In this document: positions 86 through 8,239 of the stretch, one piece after another
Layout: the number at the start of each line of letters is the position of its first letter
Position numbering within the stretch: the stretch's first letter is position 1
Assembly (NCBI GenBank): GCA_964291395.2
Contig: OZ219856.1
Coordinates: forward strand, 544,001-608,000
DNA: 64,000 nucleotides
Direction: 5' to 3'
Source of the DNA: Alphaproteobacteria bacterium
GTDB lineage: Bacteria > Pseudomonadota > Alphaproteobacteria > UBA2966
Translations under genes and position numbers: made by a program
The notes under the pieces: model-generated
Databases searched by the model: none
Told to the model about the DNA's origin: nothing
What the model saw: the letters and a program-made list of their open reading frames with translations, nothing else

Positions 86-862
86 TCAGGCGCTCCCGTC
101 GACCGGGCGGGATTTCGGGGCGGATGTCCCGAGATAGGCCTCTTGCACCGCCTTGTCGCGCTGCACCTCGCCCGGAGTGCCGAAGGCGATTTTGTACCCG
201 AAGTTGAGGACCGCGATCTGCTCCGTCACGCCCATGACGAGTTCCATCACGTGCTCGACGAGCAGAATCGTCACTCCCGAGTCACGCATCCGGCGAATGC
301 GCCGGCCCAAATTATCGATCTCCTGTCGGCTCATGCCCGCCGCCGGCTCGTCGAGCAGCAGCAGCTTCGGGCGAGCCGCTGCGGCGCGTGCGAACTCCAG
401 CCGTCGCTGCTCTCCGAATGCGAGATTGGACGCGAGCTCATCGCCCTTGTGTCCCAGATCGGCGAGCTCGAGCAGCCGGGCGATCTCCTTCCGCGTCCGG
501 CGGGTGGCGCCGAACCAGCGCGGCAGAAAGCCGTGCGCGGAGACGTCCTGGGACGAGTTCTGCGCCACCCACAGGTTCTGCCACACCGTGAGGTTCGGAA
601 ACAGGCGGATGTTCTGGAACGTGCGGGCGATTCCCGCTCTCAATCGCGTGTGCGGGGGCTTACCGTTCATCAGGTTCCCCCGGAAGTGAACCGTACCGGC
701 CGTTTCTCCGTACACGCCGCAGATCAGGTTGATCGTTGTGCTCTTGCCCGACCCGTTGGGGCCAATCAAGCCGAAGATATCTCCCTCGTTGACGGTCAGG
801 TCCAGCCCGTCGAGTGCCTTGACCCCGCCGAAGTGCTTCGATAGTCCGCGCAGCTCGAGCAC
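86..862 (-). CDS. livG: Branched-chain amino acid-type ABC transporter ATPase (LivG-like)
   Basis: Walker A GPNGSGKST, RTFQNIRLF, LLLDEPAAG, C-terminal EAYLG. Confidence 0.92.
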   Translation of the reverse strand: MLELRGLSKHFGGVKALDGLDLTVNEGDIFGLIGPNGSGKSTTINLICGVYGETAGTVHFRGNLMNGKPPHTRLRAGIARTFQNIRLFPNLTVWQNLWVAQNSSQDVSAHGFLPRWFGATRRTRKEIARLLELADLGHKGDELASNLAFGEQRRLEFARAAAARPKLLLLDEPAAGMSRQEIDNLGRRIRRMRDSGVTILLVEHVMELVMGVTEQIAVLNFGYKIAFGTPGEVQRDKAVQEAYLGTSAPKSRPVDGSA

Positions 863-866
863 CGGT

Positions 867-1769
867 CTAATCCCTGCCGCCCAGACCGACCGCCCGCTTC
901 AAAACCTGAGCGGTACGTGCATCGAACAGACCGGAAGGCTTCAGGTTCATCGCGGCGATGATCAGCAGTCCGAACACGATGTTGCGCCAGTCGCCGAGGA
1001 AGCGGAGCCCTTCCACGAGCACTCCTTGAATGAAAATGACCGCCACCAGGGTGCCGAACACGCTGGAAAGGCCGCCGAGGATCGGATAGGCGATCGCGAA
1101 GGTCGCGAGAAGCACCGTGAAAGTGAGATGATCGACGTAGGTCGCGGTGTGCGCATAGAGCGCCCCGCCGATGCCGGCAATGAAGCCGCCGGCGGTCATG
1201 GCCGTCACCTTGACGGCGGTGAGATTGATCCCCACGCTCTGGGCCGCTAGCTCGTCCTCTCCCACCGCTCGCAACACCGCCCCGGCGCGCGAGCGGTCCG
1301 TCCACCACAGCGCCGCCATGACCAGGATGACGAAGATCCAAACGAAGGCGGTGATCTCCCATGCCGACCAGCCGTTCGCCACGAAGAAGCGTATCTCCCG
1401 AAAGCCGTTGGTGCTGTCCGGTCCGACCTCGATGTCGCCGCGCGGCACGCGCCAGCTCAGATTGAAAAAGAACAGGCGAACGAACTCGCTGAAGGCGATG
1501 GTCGCCACCACGAGCATCAAGCCTTTGACCCGCAGAGCGGGAAAGCCGACGAGGAACGCGAAGAACGACGCGATGGCGGCGGCGGCAAGCAGCGCGGGAA
1601 GAATCGGCAGCTCGAAGATGACGGTGAGAATGCCCGCGGAGTAGGCCCCGATCGCAAAGAAGCCGGCCTGTCCCAGGGAAAGCTGGCCGGTCAGCATCAG
1701 GACGTAGGCGGACAGTCCGAGAAGGGTATGAATCCCGATGAGCTGGACGAGGCCGAGGTAGTACGACAT
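867..1769 (-). CDS. livM: Branched-chain amino acid-type ABC permease (LivM-like)
   Basis: Hydrophobic; GQLSLGQAGFFAIGAY, LRAVGEDELAAQSVGIN, ILGG motifs. Confidence 0.88.
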   Translation of the reverse strand: MSYYLGLVQLIGIHTLLGLSAYVLMLTGQLSLGQAGFFAIGAYSAGILTVIFELPILPALLAAAAIASFFAFLVGFPALRVKGLMLVVATIAFSEFVRLFFFNLSWRVPRGDIEVGPDSTNGFREIRFFVANGWSAWEITAFVWIFVILVMAALWWTDRSRAGAVLRAVGEDELAAQSVGINLTAVKVTAMTAGGFIAGIGGALYAHTATYVDHLTFTVLLATFAIAYPILGGLSSVFGTLVAVIFIQGVLVEGLRFLGDWRNIVFGLLIIAAMNLKPSGLFDARTAQVLKRAVGLGGRD

Positions 1770-1775
1770 CGCCGG

Positions 1776-2672
1776 TCAGTCCCGATCGATGGCCGACCCG
1801 AAAATCCCGTGCGGCCGGAAGACCAGAAACACGAAGAGCAGCAGCAGCACGTACATGTCGCGTTCGTTGACGCCCCGGAAGTACAGGAACACGTTCTCGA
1901 GCACGCCGACCAGCAGACCGGCCGCGATGGCCCCCGGAATCGATCCCAGACCCCCGATGACCGTAACGATCAGGCCCTTGACGGTGAGCGGCACCGTGAT
2001 CAGCGGCGAAAGTACGCCGACCGCCGCCGCCGTCATCGACCCCGCGATACCGCCTAGCAGGCCCGCGAGCACGAAGGTGACGGCATTGGTCCGGTGGACG
2101 TCGATACCGCAAAGCCGGGCCGCCACGTCTTGCTGAGACACAGCTCGCGTCGCCAGGCCCAGACGGCTTCGGTAGAGCACGTAGAGCAGGCCGAAGGTGC
2201 CGGCGATGCACACCGCAAACACGAATAGGAGGTCGCCGCGTATCCCGTAAGGACCCAGCTCTAACATCACGTCGTCGAACATGGCCGGAAACGTGAGCGG
2301 CGAGCCGTCCGTGGCATGCACGATGATCTCGTCGATGAAGAACAGCGCCCCGATCGAGGCCATCAAGGCAGCGAGATGGTTGTCAATCGGAATGAACCTG
2401 AAGCAGGCCACGTACACGATGAAACCCACGAGCCCCGAGGCGAGGGCCGAGACCAAGAAGACGACCAGGGCCGACGCATTGACGAGGGTGAATGCGGCGA
2501 GGCCCACGTACGCTCCGGCCAGGGAGGCCGCGGCATAGGTCATGTTGAGCTTGCCCATGGCGCCGAAGATCAGCGTGAAGCCGATCCCGATCAGAGCGTA
2601 GGTCGCGCCGAACAACAGGCCATCGCCGATGGTCTGGGTAATCTCGACGAACTCGAACCAAAAATCACCCAT
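1776..2672 (-). CDS. livH: Branched-chain amino acid-type ABC permease (LivH-like)
   Basis: GATYALIGIGFTLIFG, RAVSQQDVAARLCGID, IGGLGSIPGA, RPHGIFG motifs. Confidence 0.88.
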   Translation of the reverse strand: MGDFWFEFVEITQTIGDGLLFGATYALIGIGFTLIFGAMGKLNMTYAAASLAGAYVGLAAFTLVNASALVVFLVSALASGLVGFIVYVACFRFIPIDNHLAALMASIGALFFIDEIIVHATDGSPLTFPAMFDDVMLELGPYGIRGDLLFVFAVCIAGTFGLLYVLYRSRLGLATRAVSQQDVAARLCGIDVHRTNAVTFVLAGLLGGIAGSMTAAAVGVLSPLITVPLTVKGLIVTVIGGLGSIPGAIAAGLLVGVLENVFLYFRGVNERDMYVLLLLFVFLVFRPHGIFGSAIDRD

Positions 2673-2780
2673 GGCCTGATGTCACTCACCCCCCAGCGTA
2701 CGGAGCGTCAGGCAACCTCGCCGGACCGTAACGCACATGACCGGGCCGGCCAACCCGGTCACGTTCCCGCCCGGCGGTAT

Positions 2781-2811
2781 GGTGAAAGAGGGTCATCGGA
2801 CCCCTTTCACC
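2781..2811. other. Intergenic stem-loop between the binding-protein and permease genes (probable mRNA stabiliser or partial terminator)
   Basis: GGTGAAAG-a-GGGTC-atcg-GACCC-CTTTCACC inverted repeat. Confidence 0.55.
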
Positions 2812-2848
2812 TCGCGCTCGAGCAAGTCACGACTCTACCGGAGACTTG

Positions 2849-4129
2849 CTAGCGCGGATCGTGGACGACCTTCCACGTACCGCTGTCGGCCTGCACGAAG
2901 ACGTAGGGCTTGATAGACTCACCCTCGTCCTGCACGCGTCCGATATCTCCCATAAGACCATCGACGTTGGCTAGGGTCTCGAGACCGTCGCGGATCTTGC
3001 GCCGGTCGTCGTTGAGAGTATCGGGCTTGGCCATGACCCCCGTCGATTCGATCACCTGCTTGATGATGTGCGCATTCTCCCAGGCAGCCGCGCTATGAAG
3101 GTCGGCAGACCCACCATTTGCTTCGGCCGCCGCCGCAACCTTCGCCGCAGCATCCGTGATCGGTGCGAAGCCGGTCGGGATGTACATGCCTTCCGCCGCA
3201 GCGGAACAGCCCTTGAGTGTTTCCGCGCTGGACGAGCTGGTGAGCCCTACCAGCACCTTCGGCTTGATCCTTTGACGCTTCATCTCCTTCAACATGCCGC
3301 AGGTGGTGAACGGGTGCGAGGAGACGATCATCATGTCGGCGCCCGATTTCTTGAAGGCACGGGCCTGGACCGAGAAGTTCGTATCGGCCATCAGCCAGTT
3401 CGACGACTTCGAGACCTCCAGCACGTTCTCGTAGCCCTCCCTGACCTTGCCGGTGACCCCTTCGATCCCCCCGCCGACCCACTCGAAGCCGTGCTTCTTG
3501 GCCATCGGCACGATGACGATCGCGAACGTCAGCTTCGAATGCGCCTGGTCGGTCTCAGTGCCGCCGTAGATCGTCTTGGCGTCGGGATACTGGGTGCGCA
3601 GCCAAGCGAACAGCGCGTCATACATAGTGATCTCGTTGGGCACATTGCGGAAGGTCCACTGGGACTTCTTGGCTAGGCCGGGACGGATCGCGGTGTCGGT
3701 GAGAATGGGGAACTGAAGGCCGGTGTCGGACTCGTCGTCCACCGTTTTCTGGAAGATGCCGTACATGGCCGCCGCTGCGCCTGAGCATGTCGGTCCGATG
3801 CCGATCAACGCTTCAGTCTGCGATTCGACCTTGCGTGCGACGGAAATTGCCTGATCGGCGTTGCAGGCGGAGTCGTAGTACGTGAACTCCATCTGGGCCA
3901 TGGTGCCGTCGCCCAGTTTCACGCCGCCGGAGTCGTTTATGGATTGCACCGCCGCCTTGAGCACAGCCTCGGAGTTGACACCGAACGAGCGCAACGGTCC
4001 GGACTTGGCGCCCCATCCGGCGATCTTGACTGTGCGTTCGTCCGCAGCAGACACCGGCTGCGCGAACGCGATCAATGCGGCTACAGCCATGCTGGCCAGA
4101 GCTGTCGTCGACAATCTTACTGCAGACAT
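2849..4129 (-). CDS. ABC transporter substrate-binding protein, Liv/Peripla_BP_6 family
   Basis: Signal peptide (AVAALIAFAQPVSA); SGPLRSFG...AVQSINDSGG; YYDSAC; first gene of the liv-type operon; GAGAGGA RBS. Confidence 0.88.
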   Translation of the reverse strand: MSAVRLSTTALASMAVAALIAFAQPVSAADERTVKIAGWGAKSGPLRSFGVNSEAVLKAAVQSINDSGGVKLGDGTMAQMEFTYYDSACNADQAISVARKVESQTEALIGIGPTCSGAAAAMYGIFQKTVDDESDTGLQFPILTDTAIRPGLAKKSQWTFRNVPNEITMYDALFAWLRTQYPDAKTIYGGTETDQAHSKLTFAIVIVPMAKKHGFEWVGGGIEGVTGKVREGYENVLEVSKSSNWLMADTNFSVQARAFKKSGADMMIVSSHPFTTCGMLKEMKRQRIKPKVLVGLTSSSSAETLKGCSAAAEGMYIPTGFAPITDAAAKVAAAAEANGGSADLHSAAAWENAHIIKQVIESTGVMAKPDTLNDDRRKIRDGLETLANVDGLMGDIGRVQDEGESIKPYVFVQADSGTWKVVHDPR

Positions 4130-4901
4130 AGTCGATTCCTCTCTTTGAAGACTTCTATGGGCTAGGTTACAGCCGTTGGTTGTTGAGGGTGGTGAAGCGA
4201 ACGGGTCGCACTCAAGGCCGTCAAATCATCTCGAACTTACGTATTGTTCCGACTGTCCGGCGAGTGGCCGGGACCACAGTTCGCAATACAGTAGATTCTT
4301 CGCGCCGCCTATTTGTCAAGCAAATTAACATAACCAGTCGAGGCTGATCCGTCGTTTGACCTATACTGACTGCACAACTATGTAGTGCATTGTTATTCGG
4401 CTTTTTTCTGAATAATGAACTAGGAGGTTTCGAAGAGGGGATAATACCGCTCGCGTTGACTCGCTGCATTCGTCAACGCTTGTAGCGAAGCCGCGCTTCG
4501 GAGCTACGAGGCATGAGTTGGAAGAGGGCTGTGGAAGGTTCCGGGCTGCGTCGCCGTCTCGCCTGCGGCGGGTCGCGGGCCCATGATCGTCCATGCGGAC
4601 GAAGCGCAGGTGCTCCCGGAACACCTGCGTTCCCATTCCGACCGCCACCGCGCAAGACTTCGCCAGTTTGGCAGCGACGGCGCCGCGCCGAAAGGATGGA
4701 GCAGAGGCGCGGGCTTGATTACGCGCAGATCAACGTCGGGAGCGACCTGGACTCGTCACCGTCGAGCGTCTTGAACCAAGCCCTCGTTCGTCTGCGCGAT
4801 TACAACCTCGAAACGTCAGGGCGTGATTGTCGAAGTGGTCGCGATTGGACGACTTCGGACCCGTCGCGGCAGACTACTTACCGTCAGAAGGGAGATTGAC
4901 G

Positions 4902-5663
4902 TTGGCCAAGACGAAAGTGAGCTATGGACCGTTGATGACGGCGAGCCTTGCAAAGCAGATTGCCGAGCAAATCCGGGAGTCAATCACCGATGGAACCCTC
5001 AAGGCTGATGACCAGCTCCCGACCGAAGAAGAGCTCGCCCGCCAGTTCCGAGTCTCCCGACCCACTATACGCGAGGCGTTGAAACGGTTGGCGGCGCAGA
5101 GCTTGATCCGGTCGCGGCGCGGCCCGGCCGGCGGTACTTTCATCAACCGTCCGAGCCATGAGGAGGTCAGCTCGAGCCTGACGACCGCTACCGCGCTCCT
5201 GGTCAGCCTGGGTGAATTTAAAATCCCGGAGATCTTGGAAGCCCGCCAGGAACTGGAGGTGCTGTGTGCGCGCCAGGCGGCAGCCTATTGCGGGGAAGCG
5301 GAGCTCGACGCGATGGCCCAAGAGATCGAAATACAGCGACAGGCTTCGATTTCGGACGAGGATTTCTGCGCATCCGATGTTCGGTTTCATCGAGCCATCG
5401 CCGACGCGACCCAAAACTCGGTCCTGAAGTTCGTCATGTTCACCGTGATCGAAGCCCTGCAGCCGATCGAGAACATGGTGGTCTTCCGAGTGCGTGAACG
5501 CGAGGTGATCGTTCGGCAACATGAGGACATTCTGGCCGCATTGCGGTCCAAGGATGCGGATGCAGCGTCGCAGGCCATCCGGGAGCAGACCGCGTATCTG
5601 CGTGAACGTTTCGACGCGGCGCAGGCGATGCGCCGCCGGAAGATTGGCGCCAGGACTGCCTGA
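4902..5663 (+). CDS. GntR family transcriptional regulator, FadR subfamily
   Basis: LPTEEELARQFRVSRPTIREALKRL wHTH; FCD domain DVRFHRAIADATQN. TTG start after GGGAG chosen (ORF open from 4827). Divergent from the ABC operon. Confidence 0.92.
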   Translation: MAKTKVSYGPLMTASLAKQIAEQIRESITDGTLKADDQLPTEEELARQFRVSRPTIREALKRLAAQSLIRSRRGPAGGTFINRPSHEEVSSSLTTATALLVSLGEFKIPEILEARQELEVLCARQAAAYCGEAELDAMAQEIEIQRQASISDEDFCASDVRFHRAIADATQNSVLKFVMFTVIEALQPIENMVVFRVREREVIVRQHEDILAALRSKDADAASQAIREQTAYLRERFDAAQAMRRRKIGARTA

Positions 5664-5990: not shown

Positions 5991-6395
5991 GATCGCCGTT
6001 CCAGGAATCGGTATTGAAATCATGTTCGTTGTGAGAAAGTTTTCCGACCGGGACGGCCCCCGGAAGCCGCAAGGGAAAGAAGCGGTGAATTGCTGGAGTC
6101 GCGATCGGCAGAGGCAAAGCGATGGACGTTAGGACGGGCCGGCAGGACGATGCCCACCGTCAAGAAGAGGGTGTTGCTGTCCTCGCGAGCGGCAGCCCCA
6201 GCCGTTGGGCGGGTAGTGGATCCGCCACCAGGAATCGTCGGCGGACGGTACGGTTCGATGCGTTGCCGGGAGTGAATGATCCCAACCGGACCGGCGGCGC
6301 GCCTCGTAATCCATCGGAGCCCGGTCACGGGCTCGACCATGCGCGTGGAACCTGCCATCGTGGAGCCCGGAACGAATCGTCCGCGACACGAGCCC

Positions 6396-7268
6396 ATGGG
6401 ACCCGTAAAATACATCAAGGCGACGGTCGATCGTTACGCCCGGCTCGGCCATGACCCCTATCGCTACTTCCACGCTGAGGAAGCGCCGCCGTGGGCGGTG
6501 TTGAGGAAGCCGCTGCCGGACAGCCGTGTCGGCGTCGTCGCGACCGCGGGCGCGTACGTCAAGGGGCAGGTCGCGTTCCATTACAAGGACGACACCTCGT
6601 TCCGGAGAATTCCCAAGGCGGCGCCCTTGGAGGATCTCCGCTTCTCCCACGTCACCGAGCACTATCTGGGCAGCGCCCGCCGGGACCCCAACAGCGTCAT
6701 CCCGCTGGACTCCCTGCGGCGGCTCGAGCGCGAGGGCCTGATCGGTGCGCTCGCGGAAGATCTCTTCTCCTGTATGGGAGGCATCTACTCGCAGCGCAGG
6801 GTGCGCGACGAACTCGCGCCGGCCCTGGCCGAGCAGTTCGCACGGCAAGAAGTGGACGTGGTCCTGCTCGTCCCCATGTGACCGGTCTGTCATCAAACCG
6901 TGAGTTTGATCGCACGCCACCTGGAGAGTTTGGGAACGCCGACGGTATGCATAGGCACCGCGCGCGACATCCTCGCCGCAGGCAACCCTCCGCGCGCCGT
7001 GTTCCTGGACTATCCCCTGGGAAATACCCTCGGTCGGCCTTTCGCGCCCGACGAGCAATACGCTGTCACGCGATCCGCGATCGAGGCGCTGGAAAGAACG
7101 GTCGTGCCGGGAACGATCGAGACGCTGGACCATGTCTGGTCGGACGACGAGAGCTGGAAGGCCGAAGCGGGTAGGACGGACGGTATCGACCGGCGCCAAC
7201 CACGAGATCTGACGCCCCGGTATCAGTTCGAGGAAGACCGTATCGCGGCCGAGGCGCTGCGGGCTTGA
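6396..7268 (+). CDS. Selenoprotein of the glycine/sarcosine/betaine/D-proline reductase selenoprotein B (PrdB/GrdB-like) family; Sec at UGA 6879-6881 (U-P-V-C motif)
   Basis: ORFs 6276..6881 and 6900..7268 are in the same frame, separated only by TGA plus 6 sense codons: VLLVPM-U-PVCHQTVSLIARHLESLGTPTV...PPRAVFLDYPLG. N-half has DDTSFRRIP...RRDPNSVIPLD. Start placed at ATG 6396 (about 290 aa). Confidence 0.88.
6879..6910 (+). promoter_or_regulatory. Putative bacterial SECIS element
   Basis: TGA, 10-nt spacer, then a perfect 7-bp stem ATCAAAC/GTTTGAT (6892-6910) with loop CGTGA (GU at loop positions 2-3). Confidence 0.7.
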
Positions 7269-7399
7269 TAGGGCCGGCGGACGGCGGCCATCGTCGCCTT
7301 GCGTTCGATCCCCCGGTCGATCCCGCCGGTCATCCCCTTGCCGCGAAGCGCGCGTTTCCATAACTTGGCTTGGCGCGACTCGATTCTCGGGGACCGGAC

Positions 7400-8239
7400 A
7401 TGTCACAAGCGGCGGAAGCACGGCACGCGGATTCGGTGATGGCCACGCTCAACTTCGTGTCGTCGATCGACCAGTTGCCCGTGGCGCTGGTCAAGGAACC
7501 GGGTCTCGGACCCGACCGGAACACGATCACGACCACGGACCACGAAGTCCTGGTCGAAGACGCCCGGCCCATCGCGGCGGAGCTCGACCTCGATCGGCAG
7601 GGTTTCGCCCTCATGAGCCACCCGACGGCCGTCGAGGACTTCTACGACGACGACGAGGTGCGTGAGGTCTACTACCCGGAGATGGAGGCGCTGGTCGGAA
7701 ACGTGACCGGGGCGGGCAAGGTCGTCGTCTTTGATCACACCATCAGGGTGGATGACCAGGAAAAGCGGGTCCGCCGCAAGGTTCGCGCGCCCGTCGCCGG
7801 CGTCCACAATGACTTCACCACGCGGTCGGCGCCGCAGCGCGTCCGCGACTTGTTGCCCGGGGACGAAGCCGAGGCGCGGCTCCGGAAGCGATTCGCCTCG
7901 ATCAATGTATGGCGTCCCGTCGTCAGCCCCGTGGAGACCAAGCCGCTGGTCGTCTGCGGGTACGAGGGCATTGACGAGGCGGATCTGGTGCCGGCCGAGC
8001 GCCACTATCCCGACGGCCGGGTCGGCGGCGTCTATTACATCGTCCACAATCCGGATCAGCGCTGGTACTACTTCCCGCGCATGGCAGGTGACGAAGTCGT
8101 GCTCCTCAAGTGTTACGACTCGAACACGGACGGCACCGCGCGCTGGACCGCACACGGGACGTTCGACGACCCCGCCAGCGGCCCCGATTCCATCCCGCGC
8201 GAGAGTATCGAGATCCGGACGCTGCTGTTCTTCGACTAG
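7400..8239 (+). CDS. CmcJ/NvfI/AsaB family oxidoreductase (putative Fe/2-oxoglutarate oxygenase)
   Basis: LDRQGF, VVFDHTIR, VHNDFT, INVWRP, QRWYYFPRM, LKCYDS, AHGTF, PRESIEIRTL. Confidence 0.85.
   Translation: MSQAAEARHADSVMATLNFVSSIDQLPVALVKEPGLGPDRNTITTTDHEVLVEDARPIAAELDLDRQGFALMSHPTAVEDFYDDDEVREVYYPEMEALVGNVTGAGKVVVFDHTIRVDDQEKRVRRKVRAPVAGVHNDFTTRSAPQRVRDLLPGDEAEARLRKRFASINVWRPVVSPVETKPLVVCGYEGIDEADLVPAERHYPDGRVGGVYYIVHNPDQRWYYFPRMAGDEVVLLKCYDSNTDGTARWTAHGTFDDPASGPDSIPRESIEIRTLLFFD

Follow-up and report, generated by a model that had tools for sequence, protein, structure and literature searches.

The closest described systems are clostridial PrdB (TIGR04483) and the GrdB, GrdF, and GrdH proteins (PF07355, TIGR01917/01918), both of which carry a U-x-x-C motif. 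A third point of reference comes from metagenomic surveys. Their tables have listed "proline reductase PrdB," with UxxC and pfam07355, as an abundant marine selenoprotein family since 2005, with 42 selenocysteine (Sec) PrdB genes in the Sargasso Sea and 235 Sec plus 110 Cys homologues in GOS (PMC1088965, PMC2398784). In one worm symbiont, five selenoprotein genes for "proline reductase" have been reported in the absence of GrdA and GrdB (PMC1976440), and the lists in later reviews contain D-proline reductase/TIGR04483 with UxxC (PMC9312934, PMC13188914). Our literature search, which extended to sponge-symbiont selenoproteins, retrieved no article on what the PrdB-like proteins of the PrdA-less subfamily in Proteobacteria do.

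The window, that is, the whole 64,000-nucleotide stretch of DNA analyzed here, encodes a protein that resembles each of these systems in part. It is homologous to clostridial PrdB over residues 31–245, its U-x-x-C motif has Sec at the corresponding position, and its gene likewise contains a hairpin after the UGA. Unlike clostridial PrdB, however, it is approximately 50 residues longer owing to N- and C-terminal extensions, its host is an alphaproteobacterium, and the window has no PrdA/PrdC-type context. With GrdB, GrdF, and GrdH, it shares the PF07355 domain and the U-x-x-C motif, but it aligns only with the C-terminal part of their models, and GrdA (PF04723) was not found in its genome by a search run without a positive control. 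UxxC, pfam07355, and a mixture of Sec and Cys forms, the features of the marine "PrdB" family, all recur in the window protein and its relatives. Judged by the survey tables, the window protein would belong to the same subfamily. The gene adds one more member to a selenoprotein family that has already been catalogued and whose genes are routinely truncated by gene callers.

Gene structure and family assignment

In the preliminary description of this DNA, two adjacent open reading frames were proposed to be one gene that is read through an in-frame UGA. Both frames, 6276..6881 (201 aa) and 6900..7268 (122 aa, GTG start), lie in the same frame on the forward strand, and the codons around the TGA at 6879–6881 are GTC CCC ATG TGA CCG GTC TGT CAT CAA ACC GTG. 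Translation of 6396..7268 (+) from the ATG at 6396 to the terminal TGA at 7266–7268, with TGA read as U, yields 290 residues with U162 as the sole internal U, in agreement with the product of about 290 residues and the U-x-x-C motif that had been claimed. U162 lies in the context VLLVPM-U-PVCHQTVSLIARHLE (also written VLLVPM-U-PVCHQTVSLIAR), with the motif M-U-P-V-C-H-Q, in which the TGT at 6888–6890 (+) encodes the partner cysteine Cys165. The N-termini of homologues line up with M1 of the 290-residue product. The GC contents of the three codon positions are 0.70/0.44/0.85 on the 5′ side of the TGA and 0.69/0.52/0.73 on the 3′ side, which is the same coding type.

The best NCBIfam match of the protein is TIGR04483 (D-proline reductase PrdB), with an E-value of 2.1e-36 and 125.5 bits over residues 31–245 and model positions 18–231 of 238; the equivalog cut-off of 300 was not reached. 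PF07355 (GRDB) scored 32.7 bits and passed its gathering threshold of 22. The GrdB/GrdF/GrdH models gave 38.9–47.4 bits against cut-offs of 602–800 and covered only their C-terminal part, approximately positions 278–402 of 431–435. TIGR01917, with 38.9 bits against 602.2, and the subfamily model TIGR01918, with 43.1 against 65.45, both stayed below their cut-offs. A search with PF09338 (PrdA/GrdE) gave no match in the organism's own genome or in 401 genomes of the phylum; it had no positive control and gave no match in the control genomes either. Nor did a PrdA-like gene occur among the 11 recurrent clusters of neighboring genes whose representatives were scanned.

These results bear on the possibility that the protein is a true subunit of D-proline reductase (PrdB) or of glycine/betaine reductase (B subunit) that works with a pyruvoyl partner. 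The TIGR04483 match with its U-x-x-C motif would fit such a function, and some relatives are named "D-proline reductase (dithiol) PrdB" in their source databases. The scores, however, are far below the equivalog cut-offs, and PrdA, GrdE, and GrdA were not found in the searches described above, which argues against a PrdB or GrdB orthologue and makes a true reductase subunit very improbable. The earlier label "PrdB/GrdB-like" stands; a designation as a subunit of D-proline or glycine reductase would not be right. The preferred reading is a PrdB-like selenoprotein of Proteobacteria that stands alone.

An AlphaFold2 model based on an alignment of 19 chosen full-length and 6 chosen short database proteins reached a pLDDT of 92.9 and a pTM of 0.93. 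In this model, U162 is located between the strand 155–159 and the helix 163–178, which it caps at the N-terminus, with C165 in the first turn of this helix. Redox-active motifs of the CxxC type usually occur in such a setting, between a strand and the start of a helix. A sequence search of the PDB with the family profile returned 0 matches at E-values up to 1, and a Foldseek search against the PDB returned none at E ≤ 0.001. The matches that VIA-align produced against 48,161 chains were all of a generic, Rossmann-like kind (LacI-type and SDR proteins, Z ≤ 8.7); they correspond to the background level and provide no functional lead.

Conservation of the Sec codon and the downstream hairpin

A protein search of a 5.8-billion-protein collection returned 697 relatives. 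Among the best 120 of these, 51 were full-length (278–314 aa, 44%–59% identity, 94%–100% coverage), 67 were short (160–180 aa, approximately 54%–56% coverage, identity of up to 98%), and 2 were partial. In the alignment used for the structural model, the column of the UGA is occupied by Cys in all 19 full-length homologues, within the motif C-P-[VI]-C-H-Q, while the six short entries end with ...LLVPM, directly before this column. The predicted splitting of such genes by gene callers is borne out by the 67 short entries among the best 120 of the 697 matches. Truncation at this Sec codon is common among the database relatives, and the correct annotation in the window is one selenoprotein, where a gene caller would give a shortened "selenoprotein B family protein" and, separately, an orphan open reading frame.

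At the DNA level, we compared 80 species-representative loci, which were the top matches of a profile with the window's Sec-form protein at its head and hence constitute a biased sample. The codon was TGA in 73 and TGC or TGT in 7 of them, as counted with a motif expression that required the partner cysteine and matched all 80 loci. This provides the Cys or U that was to be expected opposite the UGA. Each half of the window gene has a relative in 80/80 loci, and the codon between the halves is TGA in 73/80, so that the junction of the two frames is more than chance. The four closest relatives (75%–88% identity) also contain TGA. In a quick maximum-likelihood tree of the family (SH-aLRT support, midpoint root), the Sec/Cys label changes at least four times, and Cys forms are nested within Sec forms.

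The minimum free energy fold places a hairpin at 6884–6918 (+), starting three bases 3′ of the UGA. Its upper stem comprises 7 bp (AUCAAAC/GUUUGAU; 6892–6898 paired with 6904–6910) below the apical loop CGUGA at 6899–6903, and the lower pairs are weaker than this stem. The 70-nt stretch was no stabler than its shuffles (z = +1.18; 184/200 shuffles fold at least as well), so that the support for the hairpin comes from comparison. In an alignment of 74 Sec-form sequences (68 distinct), standard pairs were present in 89.1% of the cells, compared with 20%–50% when the 3′ partner was slid by 1–3 columns. The observed covariation score was reached by 0/500 shuffles, a control that overstates the signal because the covarying positions are coding and the sequences related. 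Compensatory changes occurred at pair 15–31 (UA in 36, CG in 28) and at pair 18–28 (GC in 60, AU in 7). This covariation ties the wobble base of a His or Gln codon to the base at position 1 of a codon for Ile/Val or Leu, a link that constraint on the protein would hardly produce by itself. Conservation of the lower stem is poor, with pairs 6–40, 7–39, and 10–36 unpaired in 36, 26, and 23 of the 68 distinct rows, respectively.

The upper stem distinguishes the two forms of the gene. All seven pairs are present in 62 of the 73 Sec loci and six in the other 11, whereas the seven Cys loci retain 6, 3, 4, 5, 4, 4, and 3 of the 7 pairs. Within the loop, G24 never varies, and conservation reaches at least 90% at G22 and T23. 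A location directly 3′ of the UGA and a small G-containing apical loop are features of bacterial SECIS elements, and both are found here by comparison, with a single-sequence stability that is not significant. These features are named in PMC1088965. The window hairpin shares them with bacterial SECIS elements such as that of E. coli fdhF, but its sequence is specific to the family. An Rfam scan of 6000–7600 at E-values up to 10 yielded two sub-threshold chance matches and none at the hairpin. We take the comparative evidence to show that the predicted hairpin at 6884–6918 acts as a bacterial SECIS.

Conservation on both sides of the codon also speaks to a split gene, in which a 161-residue protein ending at the TGA and a 122-residue protein starting with GTG 6900 would assemble post-translationally. 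A GTG start is indeed available at 6900, and databases contain many entries of 160–164 residues. The latter, however, are what gene callers produce at any Sec codon. Moreover, two separate proteins would leave 6882–6899 untranslated, yet the six codons that separate the TGA from the earliest possible restart encode P-V-C-H-Q-T, including the partner cysteine, and are conserved as protein in 80/80 loci. GTG 6900 itself is located within the apical loop of the hairpin, and the homologues of the Cys form are single chains. We regard a split gene as very improbable.

Even less credible is a nonsense pseudogene, derived from an intact Cys-type gene by a change of TGC or TGT to TGA. The TGA is one base away from either codon, and full-length Cys-type homologues exist, but the same TGA is found in 73/80 species loci, and the downstream half has been kept as protein in 80/80, with a coding-type GC content of the codon positions. 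In addition, the hairpin with its compensatory changes follows the codon only in the TGA forms, and an in-frame TGA is common to five paralogues in the same genome (see below).

An error for TGC or TGT, conceivable in an assembly of metagenome type whose contamination is estimated at 9%, has a practically negligible probability because contigs from three other public runs of three studies cover 6879–6881 without a difference and the four closest relatives have TGA as well. These contigs keep the TGA of the preliminary description: record 8 of run X2 showed 0 differences over 6808–6986, record 11 of run X3 covered the compared region in full with 14 differences, none of them at 6879–6881, and record 2 of run X16 spanned 6444–6920 with no difference at the codon. 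Taking these lines of evidence together, 6396–7268 (+) very probably constitutes a single gene, whose product is a selenoprotein of 290 residues from the GrdB/PrdB superfamily and in which the UGA at 6879–6881 (+) is predicted to be read as Sec (U162) via the hairpin and SelB.

Contigs of the metatranscriptome run X4, the only RNA run compared and one in which carry-over of DNA is possible, cover 6301–6746 and 6907–7379, and none extends across 6747–6906. Run X3 differs from the window in the region of the terminal stop (7266–7267), and the C-terminus may therefore vary between strains. A segment of 36 bases in the C-terminal half (6983–7018) also matched deeper contigs in three runs, with a word depth of 38–51 compared to 3–14 for the gene. 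These contigs run into unlike sequence on both sides, and the match probably reflects a segment that is conserved in a paralogue or in a homologue from another organism.

Sec machinery, paralogues, and proposed mechanism

Selenocysteine insertion would depend on dedicated machinery, and selA, selB, selD, and a tRNA-Sec had been predicted to reside elsewhere in the genome. The assembly is of metagenome type and comprises 4.16 Mb in 3 contigs, with 98.1% completeness. All four components were found above the curated cut-offs, with 309.6 bits for selD, 573.6 for selA, 425.6 for selB, and 70.7 for tRNA-Sec. The genes for SelA, SelB, and tRNA-Sec adjoin one another on contig 1, and ARAGORN identified a tRNA-SeC with the anticodon TCA.

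The genome contains five additional PrdB-like genes, all outside the window: L104 955–2181 (−), L106 928–2172 (−), L105 880–2175 (−), L107 946–2178 (−), and L108 1399–2628 (+). Each has exactly one in-frame TGA, which lies in a U-P-x-C motif and has a GC-rich hairpin after it. They represent a second, longer subfamily (409–432 aa, motif [VI]-U-P-x-C-T-R-A) that scores 100–124 bits with TIGR04483, and two of the five are adjacent. In the sample of 401 genomes from the phylum, 11 were positive for PrdB-like genes, with six genes in the present genome and at most two in each of the other ten. The window gene marks its host as a user of Sec, one that encodes unusually many PrdB-like selenoproteins. 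Within the window, 124 open-frame TGA junctions occur, 21 of them with a nearby Cys; none of the 10 scanned with Pfam had a domain spanning the TGA.

According to our proposed mechanism, the hairpin at 6884–6918 would recruit SelB with Sec-tRNA(Sec), and the UGA at 6879–6881 would be read as Sec. The Sec-tRNA(Sec) would be made by SelA with selenophosphate from SelD, all four components being encoded in the same genome. In the protein, U162 and C165 are presumably the redox pair of the U-x-x-C motif, positioned where a helix begins. If the chemistry resembles that of PrdB and GrdB, the selenol of U162 may attack a carbon or heteroatom of the substrate. C165 would then resolve the adduct, and the resulting selenenyl-sulfide could be re-reduced by a thiol system.

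Genomic neighborhood and possible substrates

Upstream of the selenoprotein gene, the window contains a Liv-type ABC transporter (ATPase, two permeases, and periplasmic binding protein; 86–4129, −) and, divergent from it, a gene for a GntR/FCD regulator (4827–5663, +). Approximately 130 bases downstream follows a gene for an oxidoreductase of the CmcJ/NvfI family (7400–8239, +; NF041278, 295.7 bits), which may be co-transcribed with the selenoprotein gene. Among the 80 loci (L023–L102), the CmcJ/NvfI gene is kept downstream only in the four closest relatives (L023–L026). The GntR/FCD regulator and the Liv-type transporter are not conserved beside the gene in other genomes, and the ABC ATPase cluster present in 11/80 loci is generic. 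No universal neighbor was found across the 80 loci.

Several families recur, however, in part of the loci. Those related to acyl-CoA metabolism were CoA-transferase III (16 of the 80 loci), enoyl-CoA hydratase (15), acyl-CoA dehydrogenase (7), acyl-CoA ligase (7), and acetyl-CoA hydrolase/transferase (6). Nitroreductase (7), TauD (6), SDR (6), and rhodanese (6) recurred as well. At least one acyl-CoA-type family was located within approximately 5 kb in 43/80 loci, whereas the window itself has no such context. The own genome contains 16 CoA-transferase III and 19 ECH genes. For CoA-transferase III, the 16/80 loci compare with a rough expectation of approximately 4% per 11-kb window, calculated from the 16 copies in the 4.16 Mb of this genome. 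The association with acyl-CoA genes may thus be a several-fold enrichment, to be taken as a lead only because the expectation derives from the gene density of one genome and phylogeny is uncontrolled.

Starting from this lead, the stand-alone proteobacterial PrdB-like selenoproteins could be PrdA-independent reductases in which a thioester or another carbonyl, and not a pyruvoyl imine, activates the substrate. On acyl-CoA-type or comparable substrates, Sec would then bring about the reductive cleavage of a bond at the alpha-carbon. We consider this reading tentative and, on the whole, unlikely. While the recoding itself is textbook, the PrdA-less enzymes of aerobic or host-associated Proteobacteria represent a reasonable target for enzymology. 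With regard to the habitat, 14 of the 18 runs that contained at least half of the words sampled from 6300–7400 were labelled as sponge metagenomes, which suggests that the organism or close strains recur in sponge-associated communities.
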